NCBI GenBank assembly: GCA_035290025.1
Contig: DATDVL010000060.1
Location: 1 to 24,000, forward strand
Direction of reading: 5' to 3'
From: Candidatus Nanoarchaeia archaeon
GTDB taxonomy: Archaea > Nanobdellota > Nanobdellia > SCGC-AAA011-G17 > DATDVL01
Length of the DNA stretch: 24,000 nucleotides
Shown: positions 6,266 through 23,942 of the stretch, piece after piece
Numbering within the stretch: the first letter of the stretch is position 1
How the letters are laid out: every line of letters begins with the position of its first letter
Position numbers and translations under genes: made by a program
Notes under the pieces: model-generated
What the model was told of the DNA's origin: nothing
What the model saw: the letters and a program-made list of their open reading frames with translations, nothing else
Databases searched by the model: none

Positions 6266-7525
6266 ATGAGTTGGGTTAAGAGTACGTTTGAGAAGGTTCC
6301 TCAAGGGGAGAGAGTGGCTCTTGCTGAGAGGGCTTTGGATTTGTATACACAGATGCCTACGCCTTATTATGCAATTCCTAGTGGTATAGTTGTTCCTGAC
6401 GCTATTGATCGTTGGCCTTCCTCAGAAGTATTAGGCGAACGATGGTTGCAAGAAGATGAAATATTCAAGGATATAACAGATGTGTGTAGTGGTCTTCCTC
6501 CTGACTGGACGGCTTTGCAGGAAAGGGTTAAAAATAATAGGAGGCACATGCAGGTTTTAGCTGCTAGAAGTTCCTCTCGTCGTATGCGTCTCTCGTTGCA
6601 TAAGCTGCCTCCTTTTTTTGATGATTTTGATGGGAAAGTAAAAAAGTGGTATAATCTGCCAGAGTGTGTAAACGGTGCAGAGTATGTCGTTACAAAAGAA
6701 CATTTGGGTGAAGGTGGTTTCGGCACAGTGTACAAAGTACAAGCAGATGATGGTAGGGTGTATGCTTTGAAATTACTGCATCCTCGTCACGTTCTAACAG
6801 GGCATCAGCAAGATACGCATCATGATGCTGGTGATGTAATAAGAAAAGGATTGGTCCAACGTCAAGAATTATTCAGAAATGATTGGTTTGCTCGTCTGGA
6901 GTTTATAACGTGGAATAGGCATGATAGTTTCAGAGTAGCAGTCATGAAAGAGTTCGTTCCTGGTAAAACCGTTTATCAGGTATTGCGAAGTTTTGATGGT
7001 CCTGATAGTTTTACGCAAAGAATGGCTGCTGCTTATCGCATAGTTTTGCCCTATGCTCATTTTTTGCAGTGGATGCATCATCAGGGTTTGTTGTTTGTTG
7101 AGAATCGTTGGGATAATGTTATGAAGCATGGTGATACTATAAAAGTTATTGATTATGATTTTGTGACACCTATTGCTGAAATGGGTAATGCAGAGCATGA
7201 TTTTGTTCGATGTGTTTCTTCTCGCTCTTTTGCTTCACGACAACAAAGGCATGATACATTGCAACGCACGTTATTAAGTGATGTGGAGTGTTTTGCTTTA
7301 ATGCTTGATCAATGGTTTGTTGGTTATCCTTGGATCAGCGGTAAGGATTATGGAAATATGTTACGACATATGGATCAAGCAGCAGAAAATAAACGAGCCT
7401 ATCCAAGAGAGCGTATGCATGCTTTGCCGAAGCCGATAAGGCAAGTCGTGCATGATCTTCTTCGTTACCCGCAAGATGAATCGTTGACTATTGATGATGT
7501 GGTCAGTGCATTGGAGATGTTGTAA
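6266..7525 (+). CDS. Hanks-type protein kinase-like protein, paralog 1 (N-terminal unknown domain plus kinase-like domain)
   Basis: Motifs present: Gly-loop LGEGGFGTVYKV, VAIK-like VYALKL, catalytic-loop region FVENRWDNVM, KVIDYDF in place of DFG, and activation-segment SRSFASRQQ. Confidence 0.7.
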   Translation: MSWVKSTFEKVPQGERVALAERALDLYTQMPTPYYAIPSGIVVPDAIDRWPSSEVLGERWLQEDEIFKDITDVCSGLPPDWTALQERVKNNRRHMQVLAARSSSRRMRLSLHKLPPFFDDFDGKVKKWYNLPECVNGAEYVVTKEHLGEGGFGTVYKVQADDGRVYALKLLHPRHVLTGHQQDTHHDAGDVIRKGLVQRQELFRNDWFARLEFITWNRHDSFRVAVMKEFVPGKTVYQVLRSFDGPDSFTQRMAAAYRIVLPYAHFLQWMHHQGLLFVENRWDNVMKHGDTIKVIDYDFVTPIAEMGNAEHDFVRCVSSRSFASRQQRHDTLQRTLLSDVECFALMLDQWFVGYPWISGKDYGNMLRHMDQAAENKRAYPRERMHALPKPIRQVVHDLLRYPQDESLTIDDVVSALEML

Positions 7526-7527
7526 AC

Positions 7528-8811
7528 ATGCAGTATATTATCGATTGTCTTGAAGCAATGCCTACAGGTCAGCGTGTTGCTGAAGCGGAAAGTTTGTTTC
7601 ATGCATTTGCTGATGAGAAAGATTGGGAAAGTTCTTTTCCGTATGGTTTCTTGAGAATGGTTTCTGTTTTTAACATGCCAAGTAGGGACTATTGGGAACG
7701 TTTCGTTACAAGTGAAGAATCATTTTTTGGAAAATTACAAGCGTTGTGTGGTGGTTCTTTGCCGCAGGTGTGGTCTGATCATTATCAGCGTTGTTTAAGG
7801 AATAGAGAACATATGCTGGCATTACTAGAGAAGGTGCGAACGCGGGAAAGAACCCCTATGATACACGAAATTCCTCCGTTTATTGATAATTTTGAAGCTA
7901 AAGTAATAGACTGTTATGGTTTGTTCCACGATATCAACGGGTTGCCGATAAGAATTACAGAAGATCGTTTAGGGAGAGGTGGTTATTGCCATGTCTACAG
8001 AGCAAGCATAGGTGATGAAAAAGTAGCGTTGAAGTTGTCTATTCCTAGTCAATTAAAAACTTCATGGGCCTTAGAAGTAAATAACTTCCCGTTAGTATAT
8101 AGATCTATTAGGAAGAATTTGCAGGATCATAGTGGTTTGTTCCAACAGTCACCTTTTGCACGATTGTATCAGACAGTTGGTGGTAAGTATGATATGTATG
8201 CAATATTCATGGAACTAGTTGAGGGAACGGATATGTATACCTTAGTTTCAGAAAATGATAATAGTAACCTAGATGATAAGGTTGCCAAAACAGCTTTTTT
8301 AGTATATGCACAGATGTTATCAACATTGCATAACAAGAGTTTCGTGTTTGGTGATAATAAATTATCAGCAGTTATGATAAGAAATGAAGGAACTTGTTCG
8401 GTAGGTGATAGAACTATTATTCCTGAAGATGTAAGAGTTATTGATTATGACTTTGCTATGCCTCTAGAAGTAATGAACGCAGAGGAAAATAAGCATTTGT
8501 TGCGTATTGGGACCCCACAGTATAGTTCTCGAGAGCAGCGTTTGGCACATTTAACGAGGACGACGATGAGTGATTTGGAGGGTTTTGCTTTGATGTTGGA
8601 TCATTGGTATACAGGTTCTTTATGGAAAGAAGTTTTCAGGGATAATTTTCGTGCTGAAGAAGCTGATAGCATTAATAAGAGAGAATACCCTACCAATCGT
8701 CTCGCTTGTATTCCCGCTCCTCTACAACCTTTGATAAGGGGTGTTCTTGAATATCCGCAAGATGCGAAAATAACAAGTGGTGATTTTGTAACAGAACTGG
8801 AAAGGGTATAA
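7528..8811 (+). CDS. Hanks-type protein kinase-like protein, paralog 2
   Basis: It starts 2 nt after the paralog-1 stop and is collinear with it throughout. Motifs: LGRGGYCHVYRA, VALKLS, FVFGDNKLSAVM, RVIDYDF and GTPQYSSREQ (GTPxYxAPE-like). Confidence 0.7.
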   Translation: MQYIIDCLEAMPTGQRVAEAESLFHAFADEKDWESSFPYGFLRMVSVFNMPSRDYWERFVTSEESFFGKLQALCGGSLPQVWSDHYQRCLRNREHMLALLEKVRTRERTPMIHEIPPFIDNFEAKVIDCYGLFHDINGLPIRITEDRLGRGGYCHVYRASIGDEKVALKLSIPSQLKTSWALEVNNFPLVYRSIRKNLQDHSGLFQQSPFARLYQTVGGKYDMYAIFMELVEGTDMYTLVSENDNSNLDDKVAKTAFLVYAQMLSTLHNKSFVFGDNKLSAVMIRNEGTCSVGDRTIIPEDVRVIDYDFAMPLEVMNAEENKHLLRIGTPQYSSREQRLAHLTRTTMSDLEGFALMLDHWYTGSLWKEVFRDNFRAEEADSINKREYPTNRLACIPAPLQPLIRGVLEYPQDAKITSGDFVTELERV

Positions 8812-8929: not shown

Positions 8930-9538
8930 CTAATTTTTAAAAATCAAGAGGTATTTATTTAAATGTTTCGTATTAGAAGAACCGACTAATTTCATCCATT
9001 TTTTAATCATTTTAACACCATTTACACAAATTCTGTAAGTTTGGGTTCTCCTATCAACCCATTGATGAAAACGTAAGTCAAAAGTTGTGAGTAACAAAGA
9101 GACATCATTAATAAGTTTTAGTGAGGAACTGCCGATCTCAATTCGAGGATAATCAACTTTGTCAAACCGTAAACACCCATCAGTATCAAATAAACCACGT
9201 AGAAAATATTTAGAACTTACTGATGATTGTAGAATAACTTCAGGAATCCAAATAATATGACTCTTTTTACCAATAGGCATCTCGTTTTCTAGTAAAAATG
9301 ATGTTAGTCTTTTATCACAGGTCTGAACCCCAATACAACCATTTTTACCTCCGCTTCGATATTTCAAGATAAAGTCTCTTTTAAAAATTTTCTTTAGTAA
9401 CGGCAAAACGTGTAAGTGATAATAACCATATTCTTTTAGATCACCTCGAAGTTCCCAAACAAGTGTGCTATTTACTCTGTATAGAGTCCCATCTCCTACA
9501 TGCATCCCTAATAATTCAGCCTCAAACTTAGATACCAT
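8930..9538 (-). CDS. Free-standing double-motif LAGLIDADG homing endonuclease, paralog 1
   Basis: Motifs LLGMHVGDG and LRGLFDTDG both retain the catalytic Asp. The ORF is open to 9640, but ATG 9538 (MVSKFEAELLG) has a TATA-like ttatatta 24 nt upstream, and the longer form would overlap the rtcA start. GC was about 27-32% in two 60-nt hand counts. Confidence 0.8.
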   Translation of the reverse strand: MVSKFEAELLGMHVGDGTLYRVNSTLVWELRGDLKEYGYYHLHVLPLLKKIFKRDFILKYRSGGKNGCIGVQTCDKRLTSFLLENEMPIGKKSHIIWIPEVILQSSVSSKYFLRGLFDTDGCLRFDKVDYPRIEIGSSSLKLINDVSLLLTTFDLRFHQWVDRRTQTYRICVNGVKMIKKWMKLVGSSNTKHLNKYLLIFKN

Positions 9539-9608
9539 AATGGGTAGAAAGAGAAATTTCTTAATATAATCTTCGGAAGAAATATCGGAAAAATTCCGGA
9601 TAAAATGG

Positions 9609-9616
9609 TTTATAAA
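9609..9616 (+). promoter_or_regulatory. TATA box for rtcA
   Basis: tttataaa ends 23 nt before ATG 9639. Confidence 0.5.
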
Positions 9617-9638
9617 GATAATCCTTCTTAGAGTATGC

Positions 9639-10661
9639 ATGATTACAATTGATGGTACTAATGGTGGTGGTCAGGTGTTGCGTACTGCTTTATCGCTGTC
9701 TGCTATTACACAGCAGCCTTTTTTGCTGCAGAATATTCGTGGTGCTCGTCCGAAGCCAGGTATGGGTGCTCAACATGTGATGGCAGTGAAGGCAGCGAGT
9801 GATATCTGTCATGCTTCTGCGGAGGGTGCTAAGCGAGATAGTATGTCTTTGCGATTTATGCCGGGTAAGATTAAGGGTGGGTCGTTTTCTTGGGATATTG
9901 GTACTGCTGGTTCTACAACGTTGATTTTGCAGACGGTGCTCCCCATATTATTCTATGCTGATGGTCCTTCTAAAATAACCATCAGGGGTGGTACAGATAC
10001 AGAGCATGCGTTGCCGTCGTTGGATGCTCGTGATGTTTTTCTTGATGTGGTATGTCGTATGAATCTAGACGTTGATATGTCTATTGATAGTTTTGGTTTT
10101 TTTCCTAAAGGCCAGGGTCAGATTACTGCTACTATTGTTCCTAATAAAAGATTTTCTGGTGTGCATATATCTAATCGTGGTCTTCCTGAGCGTTTGCAGG
10201 TTACTGCTGTGGTGAGTAAGGATTTGCAGGGAAAGAAGGTTGCTGAGCGTATGGTGCAGGCGTTTATGGAGAAAGTAGTTTGGGTAAATAGTAAAGAAGT
10301 TAAGGAAGATTATGTTACGACTGCTGACACAGGTGGTTTTTTGCATGCACACACGCATTTTACGAATACAGTTTTAGGTGCAACAGTCTTGGCGGAGAAG
10401 AAAAAGTCTGCTGAGCATATTGGTTATGAGGTTGCTGCGTTGTTGAATCAAGAATTAGCGAGTGCTGCAACAGTTGATGGTTATACTGCTGATCAGTTGA
10501 TGGTATATTTTGCTTTGGCAGGTGATGGTAGTTGTAAGGTTCGTGAAATTACTGATCATATGCGTTCAAATGCTGCTGTTATTGAACAATTTTTGCCTGT
10601 CAAGTTCACTTTTGAGAATAATGAATTAAAAGTAAATACTATTAAAAGTGAAAGGGGTTAA
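9639..10661 (+). CDS. rtcA: RNA 3'-terminal phosphate cyclase
   Basis: The N-terminal signature is GGGQVLRTALSLSAITQQPF..NIRGARPKPGMGAQH, and the 340-aa length fits. Confidence 0.88.
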   Translation: MITIDGTNGGGQVLRTALSLSAITQQPFLLQNIRGARPKPGMGAQHVMAVKAASDICHASAEGAKRDSMSLRFMPGKIKGGSFSWDIGTAGSTTLILQTVLPILFYADGPSKITIRGGTDTEHALPSLDARDVFLDVVCRMNLDVDMSIDSFGFFPKGQGQITATIVPNKRFSGVHISNRGLPERLQVTAVVSKDLQGKKVAERMVQAFMEKVVWVNSKEVKEDYVTTADTGGFLHAHTHFTNTVLGATVLAEKKKSAEHIGYEVAALLNQELASAATVDGYTADQLMVYFALAGDGSCKVREITDHMRSNAAVIEQFLPVKFTFENNELKVNTIKSERG

Positions 10662-11620: not shown

Positions 11621-11723
11621 AAAGTATAACACCTCCAAAATGTGTTGGTTTTCTTAAGGAAAATTATATTAAAAAGCTTCTGGAGTACTCCGAGGGGGTA
11701 GTTTTTTGCCGATTCCATAAGGC

Positions 11724-11731
11724 TTTTAAAG
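11724..11731 (+). promoter_or_regulatory. TATA box for tRNAi-Met
   Basis: ttttaaag ends 22 nt before tRNA position 1 (11753). Confidence 0.45.
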
Positions 11732-11774
11732 AGTCTGGGGTACATTCATTGCAGCGAGGTAGAACAGCCAGGAG

Positions 11775-11792
11775 ACTTGTAAAAAGCCTGAA
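11775..11792 (+). other. tRNAi-Met intron A (18 nt, D-loop)
   Basis: BHB: outer helix AGC/GUU, bulge AAU, central helix CAGG/CCUG, bulge AGA, inner helix CUU/AAG. Boundaries are good to about 1 nt. Confidence 0.6.
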
Positions 11793-11800
11793 TGTTCGTC

Positions 11801-11823
11801 TCTGTCGTCAACGATGGCGAAAG
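11801..11823 (+). other. tRNAi-Met intron B (23 nt, position 28/29)
   Basis: BHB: central helix UUCG/CGAA, bulges UCU and AGG, and a 6-bp inner hairpin with UCAA loop. It joins UC|GGG. Confidence 0.65.
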
Positions 11824-11827
11824 GGGC

Positions 11828-12643
11828 TCATAGCTGTTGTGAGGCACCCGAATAATAGTCCTGCAAAGGATTCTTCGGGATGGTCGGAGGTTCAAATCCT
11901 TCCCTCGCTATCACTTTTAAGTAGTACTTATTTATCTTTTCTAAATGTTTCGGGCTTTGAAAGTTTAACGTTTCGCACCAATGGTTTAAATTTTCGAAAC
12001 CGGACATTTCTAAACGACTAATAATAGTATAACATTTCTTATTTCGTTTGTCCTTTACCCGATAGTTATAACGTGTAGCCACATTAAACCCAGCATTACG
12101 TAAATAATTAGTAACTTGGTTAATAAGGTAATCTTTTTTCGATGATAATGAAATAACAGGATAATAAGGATAATCCCTGTAACGTTTTTTAAAAGAGATA
12201 CATCCATCAGTGTCGAATAATCCTTGGATAAAATAAGGTATAAGGTCCGGTCTCTCTAAAATTACTAAAGGTATCTGAAGATAGTCATACTTTTTCCCTA
12301 TAGGTAATCCAATAACTTGAGTAAGATAAAGAAATAAGCTTTTTGAATATATTCTAAAACCATAAATAGTCCCTTTTTTATTCTTTTTAAAGAACTGCAT
12401 AGCTGGGCTAATTCCAAAAAGATTTTTGAGAAGTGATCTAATAATCAGGTCATAATAAGATTTCTCATCAATAGGATGCCCAGCACAATGAATAGAGTAT
12501 TCATGTTTATTTTTCCTGTAATGAATGCAGCCATCACCTGTTAAAACACCAATTAAGTAAGCAAGTTCGGGGGTTATAGTTAAAGGAAGAACTAAACCTT
12601 TAGAACGATCAAGTTTTGAAAGAGGAATGTTAAATTGAGTCAT
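11828..12643 (-). CDS. Free-standing double-motif LAGLIDADG homing endonuclease, paralog 2, with antisense read-through into tRNAi-Met
   Basis: Motifs LIGVLTGDG and IQGLFDTDG. It shares PIGKK, GLFDTDGC and a KHLxK..KY C-terminus with paralog 1. GC was about 33% in one 60-nt hand count. The last 27 codons are antisense to the tRNA gene. Confidence 0.8.
   Translation of the reverse strand: MTQFNIPLSKLDRSKGLVLPLTITPELAYLIGVLTGDGCIHYRKNKHEYSIHCAGHPIDEKSYYDLIIRSLLKNLFGISPAMQFFKKNKKGTIYGFRIYSKSLFLYLTQVIGLPIGKKYDYLQIPLVILERPDLIPYFIQGLFDTDGCISFKKRYRDYPYYPVISLSSKKDYLINQVTNYLRNAGFNVATRYNYRVKDKRNKKCYTIISRLEMSGFENLNHWCETLNFQSPKHLEKINKYYLKVIAREGFEPPTIPKNPLQDYYSGASQQL
11833..11845 (+). other. tRNAi-Met intron C (13 nt, canonical 37/38)
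   Basis: BHB: central helix CUCA/UGAG, bulges UAG and GCA. The outer helix is GGG/CCC of the anticodon stem. Confidence 0.7.
11853..11881 (+). other. tRNAi-Met intron D (29 nt, position 44/45)
   Basis: BHB: central helix CCCG/CGGG, bulges AAU and AUG, inner hairpin capped by a GCAA tetraloop. It yields the variable loop AGGUC. The register can slide by 1-2 nt. Confidence 0.55.
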
Positions 12644-20262: not shown

Positions 20263-21748
20263 TTTCTTCTTGTTTTTCTTCTGCTTTGTTGAGGACGTAG
20301 TCAATGGCGTATTCTGGCCAGTTGGCGTCGTCGAATTGTTTTCGTAATTGTTCTCTTGTGTAGCCTGCCTTTTCTGCTTGTTGTACAAGTTTTATTGCTT
20401 GTTCTAGGTATTCTGGGCTGATGCCTTCTTTTTTAAGTTTATCTTCGTAGTGGGGGAGGTGCATGATACCTTCAATTTTTCTTATTTTTTTGTATTCATA
20501 ATATATCCAACCAAGGGTGAGCATAACAACAATTATCAGTGCCCATACAACAGTTGTGCTAGGCTTTTGTAGCTCTATAGGTTGTTCAATGACGATACGT
20601 TTTGCTGCAATAGTAAAGAGTTCGCTGGCGGTAGCTACTTGCCCTTCGGTGCTTGCTTGTACAATGTAGACGTATTGTCCTGCGGGTAGTTCTGGTGGTA
20701 ATTCCAGTGTTTTAGTGATCATGAACTGGTCTTTTATTTGTACGCGTTCTGATGTTTGGGTGATAACTTTGTTGTTAAAGTCTTTAACAAAGTAGTCTAT
20801 GTCGACAGTGGTCTCTTCTTTGTTGAGGTTATAGACATTAATCGTTCCTGTTATTGCTTCCCCTGAGTTGATAGTTCGTCGTTCTGCGGGTATGTCAAGG
20901 CTTACATCCAAATGTTGTTCTTTACTTTCTGCTTCTAAGATAACTGGGATATCGTTACGTTTATTACCATTAGTAACAATTATTCTTCCGAGATAGGTTC
21001 CTTCTTGGTTTACAAGTACTTGATAGTTAACAACGTATTGACTTCTGCTGTTCAGTTTGAAGGTTGTTTCTAGTAGTTGGAGATACCGTTCAATATTTTC
21101 TGTTGATAGGTAAATTTTTGCAGGAACATTTCCTTGGTTGGTAATGATTATTTGTCCTCCTTCTATGTTTCCTGTGGTAAGTTTGAGTTTGATAATAGCA
21201 GGTGTAAATGTGAGCGGTACCTCGGCTCCGCCACCGCCTCCTCCACCACCACCGCCTCCGCCACCGCCTCCACCACTCCCACCGCTACCGCCAGTTCCTG
21301 TAGTACTCACAGTAAAATTATTACTAGTAATATTTAGGTTTCCTGCAGTGTCATTAGCAAATAAATGAAATGTGTAGTCGCCTGCTGCTGATACACTGAA
21401 AAGTGCTAGGGTTTCTGTACAGTTAAGCTCATTAAGACTATTTCCTGTAAGAACACCGCTCGTGGCAAAGGTAATATTAAATCCGCAGGTTTCTATGAGC
21501 TGAGTATCATTAATGCTATAATTAATAGGTATGTCACTAACAGTTGTTACGGTTCCGTTGGGTTTGTTAAGGATTATGCGTGGTGATACAACGTCGTTGC
21601 CATATTCTAGGGTGAAGTTTACTTTTCCTGTATTGCTTTCGCTTGCTGCTCTGCCAGTTATTTGTGCTGCTTGAAGTATATTGTAAGTGCCGTAAAGTGA
21701 GAGGAGGGTTATGATGATAAGTGTGCTTGCGGTTAGTTCTCTTCTCAT
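20237..21748 (-). CDS. Type I membrane surface protein with beta-sandwich domains, poly-Gly linker and cytoplasmic tail (503 aa)
   Basis: It has a signal peptide and several N-x-S/T sequons. A 24-aa Gly/Ser tract is followed by PAGQYVY-type beta-sandwich sequence, a TM segment (VVWALIIVVMLTLGWIYY) and a charged tail of about 90 aa. It overlaps the smc 3' end by 26 nt. Confidence 0.65.
   Translation of the reverse strand: MRRELTASTLIIITLLSLYGTYNILQAAQITGRAASESNTGKVNFTLEYGNDVVSPRIILNKPNGTVTTVSDIPINYSINDTQLIETCGFNITFATSGVLTGNSLNELNCTETLALFSVSAAGDYTFHLFANDTAGNLNITSNNFTVSTTGTGGSGGSGGGGGGGGGGGGGGGGAEVPLTFTPAIIKLKLTTGNIEGGQIIITNQGNVPAKIYLSTENIERYLQLLETTFKLNSRSQYVVNYQVLVNQEGTYLGRIIVTNGNKRNDIPVILEAESKEQHLDVSLDIPAERRTINSGEAITGTINVYNLNKEETTVDIDYFVKDFNNKVITQTSERVQIKDQFMITKTLELPPELPAGQYVYIVQASTEGQVATASELFTIAAKRIVIEQPIELQKPSTTVVWALIIVVMLTLGWIYYEYKKIRKIEGIMHLPHYEDKLKKEGISPEYLEQAIKLVQQAEKAGYTREQLRKQFDDANWPEYAIDYVLNKAEEKQEETKTSNLPP
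21227..21298 (-). repeat. Gly-rich low-complexity coding tract (GTGGSGGSG16)
   Basis: There are 16 consecutive Gly codons (21227-21274) using mixed GGA/GGC/GGT, then S-GG-S-GG-T-G. It is a local GC spike in an AT-rich gene. Confidence 0.9.
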
Positions 21749-22155
21749 GACTTCACCTTTTTTTGCCGAACAGTAATATGCCCTTGGTAGGCACCAATTT
21801 TTTTTGGTGGTATATGAAGATAAATAGTTATTTCTTTTGTGATATTAGGAACTAGAATAATATTATTTTCTTCAGGGTAAACATAGTCTTCATCGGTGAA
21901 TATACTAATATATGTTTCTTCTTGAGGTGTAATTTTTATGGCTCGTTCAAGTATAGTTCCAGGGAGTCCTGCTCCAAAGTGTAGTTGGTCATTATCTGCA
22001 TTAAATCCGATATAATCTGCAATGCGGTAATCGTAAGGAATAATTATCGTTTCGTAAGTACTATAATAGATGGTTGCAGTAATAACTATGGTTATCGCTG
22101 CTATGAGTGTGTAGGCGATAATAGTTTTTAGGATTTTCTTTTTCTGAGTAACCAT
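21745..22155 (-). CDS. Small N-terminally anchored envelope protein (136 aa)
   Basis: It has an N-terminal TM segment (IIAYTLIAAITIVITATIYY) and a beta-rich ectodomain. It overlaps both neighbours (28 nt and 4 nt), indicating an operon. Confidence 0.55.
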   Translation of the reverse strand: MVTQKKKILKTIIAYTLIAAITIVITATIYYSTYETIIIPYDYRIADYIGFNADNDQLHFGAGLPGTILERAIKITPQEETYISIFTDEDYVYPEENNIILVPNITKEITIYLHIPPKKIGAYQGHITVRQKKVKS

Positions 22156-23285: not shown

Positions 23286-23942
23286 TTATCCAATGAAGTG
23301 TTCTCCACGCAGTTGTACAGCAGTATCGGTGTAAGTTCTTCCTGCAGGCGTGTCTGCGGAAAGGTTAAGGTATATTTCTATGATTATTTCATCAGTAGCA
23401 TCAGCAAACGTGAGGTTACTGCAGACGCGTGTGTGGGTATTACTCATGGCGGTAATGTTGCCAGTAATATTTTTTGTTGAGTAGTTAAGGCCGCTTGCTC
23501 CGCAGCTGTTGCTTTCGTTATCGCTTGCATTCCACATGTAGCTGGGTGTTGTTCCTCCAAGGAATTGTGCTGCAGTGCTGCCATTGATAGTAAGATTGAT
23601 ATCGACATTGCCGTCATTGCGTATGACTAAGCCGTAAGGTTCGTTGAACGTGCTGGGGTTGGTTCCTGCTGTGGTATTAATTGGGGTATAGGAGGGTGCT
23701 GCTGCTAATGATCCGTTCCCAAAGTCTACGAAACTTGTGTTCAAACTAATAGAAATCGTGTTAGATATCGTGACATTGACGGTTCCTGTTGCTGTTGATG
23801 ATGCTGCTAGTCCTGTAATAAGAGGGAGTTCTACTTTTCCTAGTTTTACAAAACTTACCGTTGCTCCAAATAAGGTGATGAATATAGCCAATATGGACAA
23901 GTAGAGTAATGTCCTATTGGTTATTTCTCCTTTATGGTTCAT
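23286..23942 (-). CDS. Secreted or anchored, densely sequon-decorated beta-rich protein (218 aa)
   Basis: It has an N-terminal hydrophobic segment (LLYLSILAIFITLFGATV) and at least a dozen N-x-S/T sequons. The SD-like AAGGAG lies 9 nt upstream of the ATG, which suggests the operon continues upstream beyond the window. Confidence 0.6.
   Translation of the reverse strand: MNHKGEITNRTLLYLSILAIFITLFGATVSFVKLGKVELPLITGLAASSTATGTVNVTISNTISISLNTSFVDFGNGSLAAAPSYTPINTTAGTNPSTFNEPYGLVIRNDGNVDINLTINGSTAAQFLGGTTPSYMWNASDNESNSCGASGLNYSTKNITGNITAMSNTHTRVCSNLTFADATDEIIIEIYLNLSADTPAGRTYTDTAVQLRGEHFIG

Follow-up and report, generated by a model that had tools for sequence, protein, structure and literature searches.

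How a tRNA gene of 158 nt can encode an initiator tRNA of 75 nt is the question raised by a locus on contig DATDVL010000060.1, of which a stretch of 24 kb was analysed (this whole stretch is referred to here as the window; coordinates are those of the window, and L-numbers denote other loci that were fetched). The gene, an initiator tRNA-Met (tRNAiMet) gene at 11753-11910 on the forward strand, is proposed here to contain four bulge-helix-bulge (BHB) introns. Archaeal tRNA genes were stated by Fujishima and Kanai to have 'a maximum of three introns' (PMC4033280), and a second source states that they 'can contain up to three' (PMC8450103), which matches the premise of a preliminary description of this DNA. 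We consider, with a probability of about 85%, that the gene is the functional initiator tRNA-Met of a DPANN archaeon and that the four introns are spliced out by known machinery. No report of a four-intron archaeal tRNA was found in the literature searched, the coverage of which was incomplete, so that a report elsewhere is possible.

The gene starts with AGCGAGG and ends with CCTCGCTA. Removal of introns of 18, 23, 13 and 29 nt (83 nt altogether) from the 158 nt leaves a product of 75 nt, AGCGAGGTAGAACAGCCAGGAGTGTTCGTCGGGCTCATAACCCGAAGGTCGGAGGTTCAAATCCTTCCCTCGCTA, which carries the marks of an initiator, namely the CAU anticodon, the A1:U72 pair and an anticodon stem with three G:C pairs in a row at its foot (29-31:39-41). 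ARAGORN called this product tRNA-Met(CAT). Its stems of 7, 4, 5 and 5 pairs are perfect, with standard pairs at all 21 stem positions, and the cloverleaf is both the minimum free energy (MFE) and the centroid structure (-27.5 kcal/mol, 54% of the ensemble, z = -2.7). CCA is not encoded by the gene. The length, coordinates and initiator features (A1:U72, GGG/CCC) given in the preliminary description were borne out by the sequence, as was its claim that a single cut rule yields exactly 75 nt. The D-loop it reported is present but had to be corrected to AGCCAGGAGT (10 nt), the final T being contributed by exon 2. The five exons are collinear within the 158 nt, and the gene is thus neither a split nor a permuted tRNA gene.

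In the BHB layout used, an outer helix (h) and a 4-bp central helix (H) are followed by a 3-nt bulge in which the cut falls after the second base, an inner helix (h'), a loop, and then the second strands of h' and H, a second 3-nt bulge and the second strand of h. All four introns match this layout exactly, with Watson-Crick 4-bp H helices and 3-nt bulges in the very register proposed earlier, and every BHB is supported by h, by h' or by both. At no intron is the base following the 5' cut the same as that following the 3' cut, so the junctions cannot slide. On its own, the motif is common. The 64 relaxed BHB-like candidates counted within the 158 nt would leave room for a chance resemblance, or for an assembly chimera in which tRNA-like ends surround unrelated sequence. 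However, intron shuffling gave a chance of 0.5-4% per junction for an in-register 4-bp helix and a joint chance of about 4e-8 for all four.

Because BHB-like motifs are frequent when taken alone, the combination of junctions was tested instead. Recursive removal of BHB-compatible segments generated 5306 products of 70-95 nt. ARAGORN accepted 300 of them and was therefore unable to rank the products, so they were scored with a hidden Markov model (HMM) built from 44 distinct intron-less initiators of diverse archaea, collected by a genome pattern scan. The four-intron product ranked first, with 68.6 bits and with columns 1-75 aligned to residues 1-75 without an indel; the runner-up scored 61.5 bits and the median was 20.9. 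Additionally, a BHB-aware dynamic programme, in which introns were permitted at BHB candidates only and exons were scored with the same profile after the acceptor columns had been neutralised, arrived at these four introns and at five exons that form perfect stems, in exact agreement with the exon structure of the preliminary description.

The gene might also be functional with a different exon structure, having fewer or larger introns, or an insert that is retained or removed by a route other than a BHB, for which intron B is the likeliest candidate. Spliced alignment with the profile alone found introns C and D without BHB information and gave another solution for the 5' half, while ARAGORN at low stringency placed a one-intron 'tRNA-Thr' over the gene. 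The profile-only solution is a five-intron artefact that leaves the D-stem unpaired, and the 'tRNA-Thr' model, one of 48 mostly spurious calls, scores only at the relaxed threshold and ignores the CAU loop; both were rejected. The four-intron solution is the optimum under BHB-constrained junctions, and exon 2 (GTTC...) is the sole source of the D-stem 3' strand, which covaries with the 5' strand. Intron B, although its BHB is energetically poor, is kept in two related genes (L143 and L130) with compensatory changes in h'. We therefore hold a different exon structure to be highly improbable.

The identical 158-nt gene is present in five fetched contigs (L001-L005) that come from five samples and different assemblers, the sole nearby differences being three substitutions 27-38 nt downstream of the gene in L002. 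The RtcA protein of the window was found on 11 contigs. Identity in five independent assemblies and the orthologues in other genomes described below refute a chance resemblance or a chimera as far as computation can, and next to no weight is left to that explanation. The threonyl-tRNA synthetase (ThrRS) of the window is 85%, 74% and less identical to proteins labelled Nanoarchaeota, Nanoarchaeia or Woesearchaeota. Judged by this similarity, the organism is a DPANN archaeon of the Nanoarchaeota/Nanoarchaeia, in the neighbourhood of Woesearchaeota and Pacearchaeota. The sample names presumably point to Rifle aquifer groundwater metagenomes ('ANAN16' naming).

Orthologues provided a further line of evidence. 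A pattern scan for the T-loop and acceptor 3' strand in 185,579 species genomes returned at least 120 matching stretches; the genome of the window itself is not among the matches listed. Roughly 75 of the matches listed are archaeal initiators of the AGCGAGG type, most of them 75-76 nt long and uninterrupted, and a few initiators among the matches listed are 113-198 nt long with two inserts (in Aenigmatarchaeota, Woesearchaeota, Pacearchaeota and a thaumarchaeon). The metagenome pattern scan yielded just three two-intron genes. Closer relatives were located through neighbouring genes. L143 (GCA_964365915.1), whose ThrRS is 74% identical, is syntenic with the window for ThrRS, RtcA, ThiI, RNase HII and SMC, and carries between RtcA and ThiI a gene of 149 nt (L143:16557-16705, +) with four introns, at 20a/21, 28/29, 37/38 and 43/44. 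The exons of the two genes are identical at 68 of 75 positions (91%), compared with 13/18, 18/23 and 10/14 for introns A, B and C (71-78%). In these three introns the H strands and bulges are preserved and the h' stems are maintained by different bases; intron A of L143, 17 nt long, has the same H and 3' bulge as that of the window. The fourth intron lies one base upstream, has ACCC/GGGT as its H in place of CCCG/CGGG, and is not alignable with intron D; relatives more generally have such an intron at 43/44. The acceptor stem differs at three pairs, all of them compensated (AGCAGAG/CTCTGCT versus AGCGAGG/CCTCGCT).

Introns B, C and D are also present in L130 (neighbour protein 75% identical), in which the D-loop is uninterrupted and intron A is lacking; its intron B is identical to that of the window at 15 of 23 positions, with the h' stem again kept by different bases. 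A further gene, L135:2237-2405 (-), found identically in L136, L137 and L138 and thus in four assemblies in all, has four introns at 15/16, 29/30, 37/38 and 43/44. Its different D-loop and stem sites mark a second four-intron architecture and imply independent gain, or sliding, of introns. The preliminary description had regarded four introns as exceptional; the number does exceed the published maximum, but the gene is not unique, as two further genes (L143 and the one shared by L135-L138) have as many. Three introns are present in L133, L139 and L150, two in L141 and L148, and one, at 53/54, in L134 and L145. The stem intron is at 28/29 in L150 and at 29/30 in L133 and L135, and the 37/38 intron occurs in nine of the 11 clade genes. 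Altogether, introns of the clade occupy at least nine sites (13/14, 15/16, 20a/21, 28/29, 29/30, 37/38, 43/44, 44/45 and 53/54). In L133 and L135 the canonical intron, with an H of 3 bp, depends on the 29/30 intron being removed first, and the strict BHB filter had to be relaxed for these two genes.

The spliced products of all 11 clade genes are 75 nt long with perfect stems. When eight of them were aligned, 100% of the cloverleaf pairs were standard, and ten pairs had changed on both sides (19 cells). None of 500 shuffles reached the observed covariation, and slid controls of the same alignment were 39-55% paired. Among the covarying pairs are 11:24 and 12:23 of the D-stem; in four of the genes (the window, L143, L135 and L139) the D-loop intron comes between the two strands of that stem. 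The comparison of orthologous loci suggested with the preliminary description therefore came out in its favour, with introns at or beside the same positions, different intron sequences, preserved BHBs and compensatory stem changes.

These data also bear on whether the gene is a decaying or redundant pseudogene, whose inserts are never removed while an uninterrupted gene elsewhere serves as the working initiator. Inspection of 24 kb of genome, the failure of standard tRNA finders to call the gene, and BHB conformers that are not minimum-energy structures would all be compatible with such a pseudogene. A pseudogene would not, however, retain all eight splice sites in register, each of the 21 stem pairs of the product and a conserved promoter box, nor would it share a four-intron layout with a species of just 74% ThrRS identity. 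It is also at odds with the compensatory acceptor and T-stem changes of L143, where exons are more conserved than introns. All 11 clade genes are interrupted, by one to four introns each, and no intact copy lies beside them in the fetched loci. We thus judge a pseudogene to be very unlikely and, at the level of sequence comparison, regard the comparative evidence for a four-intron gene as decisive. The coordinates of the exons, introns and other features are given in Table 1.

Table 1. Exons and introns of the four-intron tRNAiMet gene and other features of the window (H, central helix; h, outer helix; h', inner helix).
Feature	Position	Strand	Description
Putative BRE/TATA promoter	11719-11733	+	aagg-CTTTTAAA-gag; TATA box about 23-30 nt upstream of position 1
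Exon 1, 22 nt	11753-11774	+	acceptor 5' strand AGCGAGG, U8 A9, D-stem 5' strand GAAC, D-loop AGCCAGGAG; tRNA positions 1-20a
Intron A, 18 nt	11775-11792	+	position 20a/21, D-loop; H 11769-72 CAGG / 11787-90 CCTG; bulges 11773-75 AGA, 11791-93 AAT; h' 11776-78/11784-86 (3 bp); h 11766-68/11794-96 (3 bp)
Exon 2, 8 nt, TGTTCGTC	11793-11800	+	T21, D-stem 3' strand GTTC, G26, T27 C28
Intron B, 23 nt	11801-11823	+	position 28/29, anticodon stem 5' strand; HBh' type; H 11795-98 TTCG / 11818-21 CGAA; bulges 11799-801 TCT, 11822-24 AGG; h' 6 bp 11802-07/11812-17, TCAA loop; without h
Exon 3, 9 nt, GGGCTCATA	11824-11832	+	G29-G31, anticodon loop C32 U33, anticodon CAU, A37
Intron C, 13 nt	11833-11845	+	canonical 37/38; hBH type; H 11827-30 CTCA / 11840-43 TGAG; bulges 11831-33 TAG, 11844-46 GCA; h GGG 11824-26 / CCC 11847-49 (3 bp, 5 bp after removal of B); almost no h', inner part just a 6-nt loop
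Exon 4, 7 nt, ACCCGAA	11846-11852	+	A38, anticodon-stem 3' strand C39-A43, A44
Intron D, 29 nt	11853-11881	+	position 44/45, start of variable loop; HBh' type; H 11847-50 CCCG / 11876-79 CGGG; bulges 11851-53 AAT, 11880-82 ATG; h' 11854-62/11867-75 (8 pairs as 2 + 6 bp, one mismatch), GCAA loop; no h
Exon 5, 29 nt	11882-11910	+	G45-C48 of variable loop, T-arm GGAGG-TTCAAAT-CCTTC, acceptor 3' strand CCTCGCT, discriminator A73
T-rich tracts, likely transcription stop	11915-11940	+	TTTT 11915-18; tttatctttt 11931-40
LAGLIDADG_3 ORF, 271 aa	11828-12643	-	Pfam E = 1e-12; converges on the tRNA gene
tRNA-Ser(GCT) gene, 115 nt	8928-8814	-	two BHB introns
tRNA-Ser intron, 20 nt	8898-8879	-	position 29/30; H GCGC/GCGT
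tRNA-Ser intron, 11 nt	8870-8860	-	position 37/38; H TTGC/GTAA
LAGLIDADG_3 paralogue	8930-9640	-	32% identical to ORF 11828-12643
RtcA (RNA 3'-phosphate cyclase)	9639-10661	+	1.1 kb upstream of tRNAiMet
Protein-kinase-domain ORFs, two in tandem	6266-7525, 7528-8811	+	

Signals for expression flank the gene. The A/T-rich box CTTTTAAA at 11723-11730, preceded by purines, has counterparts at the same distance upstream in seven of eight aligned loci (CTTTTAAA, CTTTAAAA or TTTTTAAA, and TATATAAA in L134), the eighth, L130, having a run of N there. A T-rich tract follows the gene in all eight. This layout fits the known promoter and terminator architecture of archaea, and by analogy we infer that the box, as part of a candidate TFB recognition element (BRE)/TATA promoter, and the T-tracts act as promoter and terminator, respectively.

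Under the four-intron reading, one precursor of about 160 nt containing all four BHB introns would be transcribed from the TATA-type promoter. EndA would cleave after the second base of each 3-nt bulge, and an RtcB-type ligase would join the exons via their 2',3'-cyclic phosphate and 5'-OH ends. The resulting 75-nt tRNAiMet would have a D-stem and an anticodon stem that arise only on splicing. Excision is predicted to proceed stepwise, by cutting, ligation and refolding, with A and D removed first, then B, and canonical C last. The preliminary description had noted that the BHBs of A and B, and those of C and D, share nucleotides; the overlap exists, but precisely it is h of A (GUU, 11794-96) that runs into H of B (UUCG, 11795-98), and h of C (CCC, 11847-49) that forms part of one H strand of D (CCCG, 11847-50). 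Since overlapping BHBs are mutually exclusive and the inner exons are 7-9 nt long, stepwise excision with ligation and refolding between steps would be needed. Cutting all sites at once would leave exons of 6-9 nt held by just a few pairs. Exon 4 is even shorter, 6 nt (ACCCGA, ACCCGG or ACCCAA), in L143, L130, L135, L133, L139, L141 and L150, where it consists of an H strand and two bulge bases of the next intron, its first base serving at the same time as the last of three bases in a bulge of the canonical intron.

What it costs to form each BHB was estimated by constrained partition-function calculation, the values of which are indicative only. In the full precursor, introns A and D cost 3.3 and 3.0 kcal/mol, about unchanged after other introns are removed. 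Intron B costs 11.2 kcal/mol in the full precursor and 5.2 once A is removed, and intron C costs 6.7 kcal/mol and 3.8-3.9 once B and D are removed. L143 has the same ranking of costs, with C dropping to 0.4 kcal/mol after removal of B and D. These costs lead to the predicted order of A and D, then B, then C. Both the motif overlap and the folding energies are consistent with the ordered splicing and refolding proposed earlier.

Several points weigh against a functional, fully spliced gene and are gathered here. We infer transcription, EndA cleavage, ligation and the order of splicing from DNA, and the status of the gene as sole initiator from 24 kb of genome. ARAGORN at default settings and Rfam at gathering thresholds reported no RNA gene anywhere in the 24-kb window, and Rfam at E <= 10 matched its tRNA model to the 3' part only (11838-11910, E = 0.82), besides two chance matches. 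This is expected for such an architecture but provides no independent support for the gene. Support for the BHBs comes from the eight genes scored first, where a complete 4-bp H was counted in 19 introns out of 24 and a 3-bp H in the other five, against 0.36 complete helices expected from shuffling, but this count is partly circular because the orthologue junctions were chosen with the BHB constraint. None of the BHB conformers is the MFE structure in nearest-neighbour models; protein-stabilised motifs usually are not. The BHB of intron B is costly (5-11 kcal/mol) and competes with the continuous helix GUCUCU/AGGGGC. Moreover, introns B and D are of the HBh' type, with no outer helix, so that a broad-specificity endonuclease would be needed. 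No EndA was detected by Pfam among 23 ORFs of the window (those left out were 21745-22155, 23286-23942, 134-424, 402-653 and other small ORFs).

The initiator gene is met from the opposite side by an open reading frame (ORF) of the LAGLIDADG_3 family. Its last 83 nt are antisense to exon 5, intron D, exon 4 and intron C and reach into exon 3, its stop codon TGA being the complement of the TCA of the anticodon loop. Both this protein and its paralogue in the window have two LAGLIDADG motifs in which the acidic catalytic residue is kept (..LTGDG.. and ..LFDTDG..), and a weak sequence similarity to I-DmoI was found (E = 0.07). By its motifs the protein is a candidate homing endonuclease, with putative DNA cleavage and a putative target site. 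Neither the LAGLIDADG proteins nor two small neighbouring ORFs received a useful name from NCBIfam. Homologues about 50% identical occur across DPANN.

At all ten distinct loci examined that have this gene or a homologue of it with 48-75% identity (the window, L130, L133, L134, L135, L139, L141, L145, L148 and L150), it converges on and abuts or overlaps tRNAiMet, which carries one to four introns in each case. The overlap with the tRNA 3' end is 3-83 nt in the eight loci measured, with L145, L148 and L150 outside the measurement. No LAGLIDADG homologue was present within the fetched locus (<=8 kb) at the roughly 75 initiator loci among the pattern matches listed. L143 has four introns without a LAGLIDADG neighbour. 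The linkage is striking, in a sample biased by how the loci were found. One rather unlikely account is that the pile-up of introns is tied to the LAGLIDADG gene and not to neutral drift, the protein being, or descending from, a free-standing homing endonuclease that targets the uninterrupted tRNAiMet. BHB introns would then accumulate because they break up its target and confer immunity or, alternatively, would be captured during repair of its cuts. If this were true, tRNA introns would gain a protective role at the DNA level with an identified antagonist. A protective role of this kind was reportedly proposed for split tRNAs by Randau and Soll.

The window contains a second hidden tRNA gene, tRNA-Ser(GCT), with two BHB introns that follow the identical cut rule. 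Its spliced product of 84 nt, which has G73 and a long variable arm, was called tRNA-Ser(gct). The one match that ARAGORN gave in its intron mode, a 'tRNA-Pyl(cta)', is a misreading of this two-intron gene. Among the orthologues, that of L133 has no intron, and those of L144 and L139 have one each. At their 3' ends, the tRNAiMet introns at 28/29 and 29/30 (..ATGGCGAAAG and ..GCGGAA) resemble the tRNA-Ser intron at 29/30 (..ATGGCGTAA). The stretches compared (intron B and the 29/30 introns of L133 and L135 on one side, the tRNA-Ser intron on the other) are short and their likeness is possibly due to chance; it hints at a transfer of introns between tRNA genes, as proposed for Thermoproteales. 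The LAGLIDADG_3 paralogue ends 2 nt upstream of tRNA-Ser on the same strand, so that the promoter of the tRNA would fall inside the 3' end of the paralogue.

RtcA is an RNA end-healing enzyme linked to RtcB ligation. In L143 (15508-16515) its gene lies just 41 nt upstream of tRNAiMet, and the proximity of RtcA to the four-intron gene may be a coincidence. Compared with L143, the window has two extra blocks, one upstream of RtcA (the kinases, tRNA-Ser and the LAGLIDADG paralogue) and one around tRNAiMet (Vut_1, the LAGLIDADG ORF, a 161-aa ORF and TrmB). Phage-type integrase genes adjoin the tRNAiMet locus at L139:2743-3783 and L148:2382-3120, with tRNA-Ser(GCT) in between in L139, which suggests that these loci of L139 and L148 are integration hot spots. 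The GC content of the window is 39%, and GC skew is positive in 24 of 24 one-kb windows (+0.01 to +0.43; at least +0.13 in 20), regardless of the coding strand.

With this gene, the documented ceiling for introns per tRNA gene would move from three to four, in a tRNA that every cell needs to start translation and in organisms whose genomes measure about 1 Mb. Being conserved across species, the architecture is not a one-off. Inner exons of 6-9 nt, together with mutually exclusive BHBs, make the gene a natural test case for ordered cutting, ligation and refolding, and the 6-nt exon 4 of its relatives tests the minimum exon for the endonuclease-ligase system. Both tRNA genes of the window were missed by ARAGORN and Rfam, so that such genes offer a concrete explanation for 'missing' DPANN tRNAs. 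Kaneta et al. noted that incomplete DPANN tRNA sets point to unidentified disrupted genes and urged manual curation (PMC5829648), and according to a 2026 preprint, which covers 208 complete genomes from the phylum, unexplained missing tRNAs remain.

Since the motif and the machinery look the same, the four-intron gene extends the class of multiple-intron tRNA genes. Such genes are known from Thermoproteales (Crenarchaeota) such as Pyrobaculum, Thermofilum and Caldivirga (Sugahara et al. 2007/2008, as relayed in PMC4033280 and PMC8450103), where introns can lie so close together that one must go before the BHB of the next can form (PMC8450103). The gene described here shares with them short BHB introns at canonical and non-canonical positions of one cis gene, relaxed HBh'/hBH motifs and close packing. 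In contrast to those genes, which belong to the TACK group and have at most three introns in the sources cited, it has four, lies in a DPANN genome, encodes the initiator and has inner exons of 7-9 nt (6 nt in relatives). What is new is therefore the number of introns above the stated limit, the DPANN lineage and the initiator as the affected gene.

Within DPANN, broad-specificity EndA enzymes have been described, of the epsilon2 type in ARMAN and of the alpha4 type with an L3 loop in several lineages (PMC3239211, PMC5829648). The disrupted tRNA genes in these reports are from the same superphylum and likewise have non-canonical introns and relaxed BHBs, but no four-intron gene is described there. 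Nuclear tRNA genes of the red alga Cyanidioschyzon merolae have as many as three BHB introns, at sites that include the D-loop, 37/38 and the T-loop, and in a three-intron tRNA the flanking introns were shown experimentally to be removed before the canonical one (PMC3728597). The same flanking-before-canonical order is predicted here, whereas C. merolae, a eukaryote, has a different endonuclease, no more than three introns in a gene and some genes that are permuted as well. Finally, according to the preprint 10.64898/2026.05.13.725050, the split tRNA genes of Nanoarchaeum equitans include the initiator, and Caldivirga maquilingensis has tri-split genes. Extreme fragmentation, BHB-like joining by EndA and, in a nanoarchaeon, an affected initiator are features in common. 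Split genes, however, are separate transcription units joined in trans, whereas the five exons described here are collinear in one gene behind one putative promoter.

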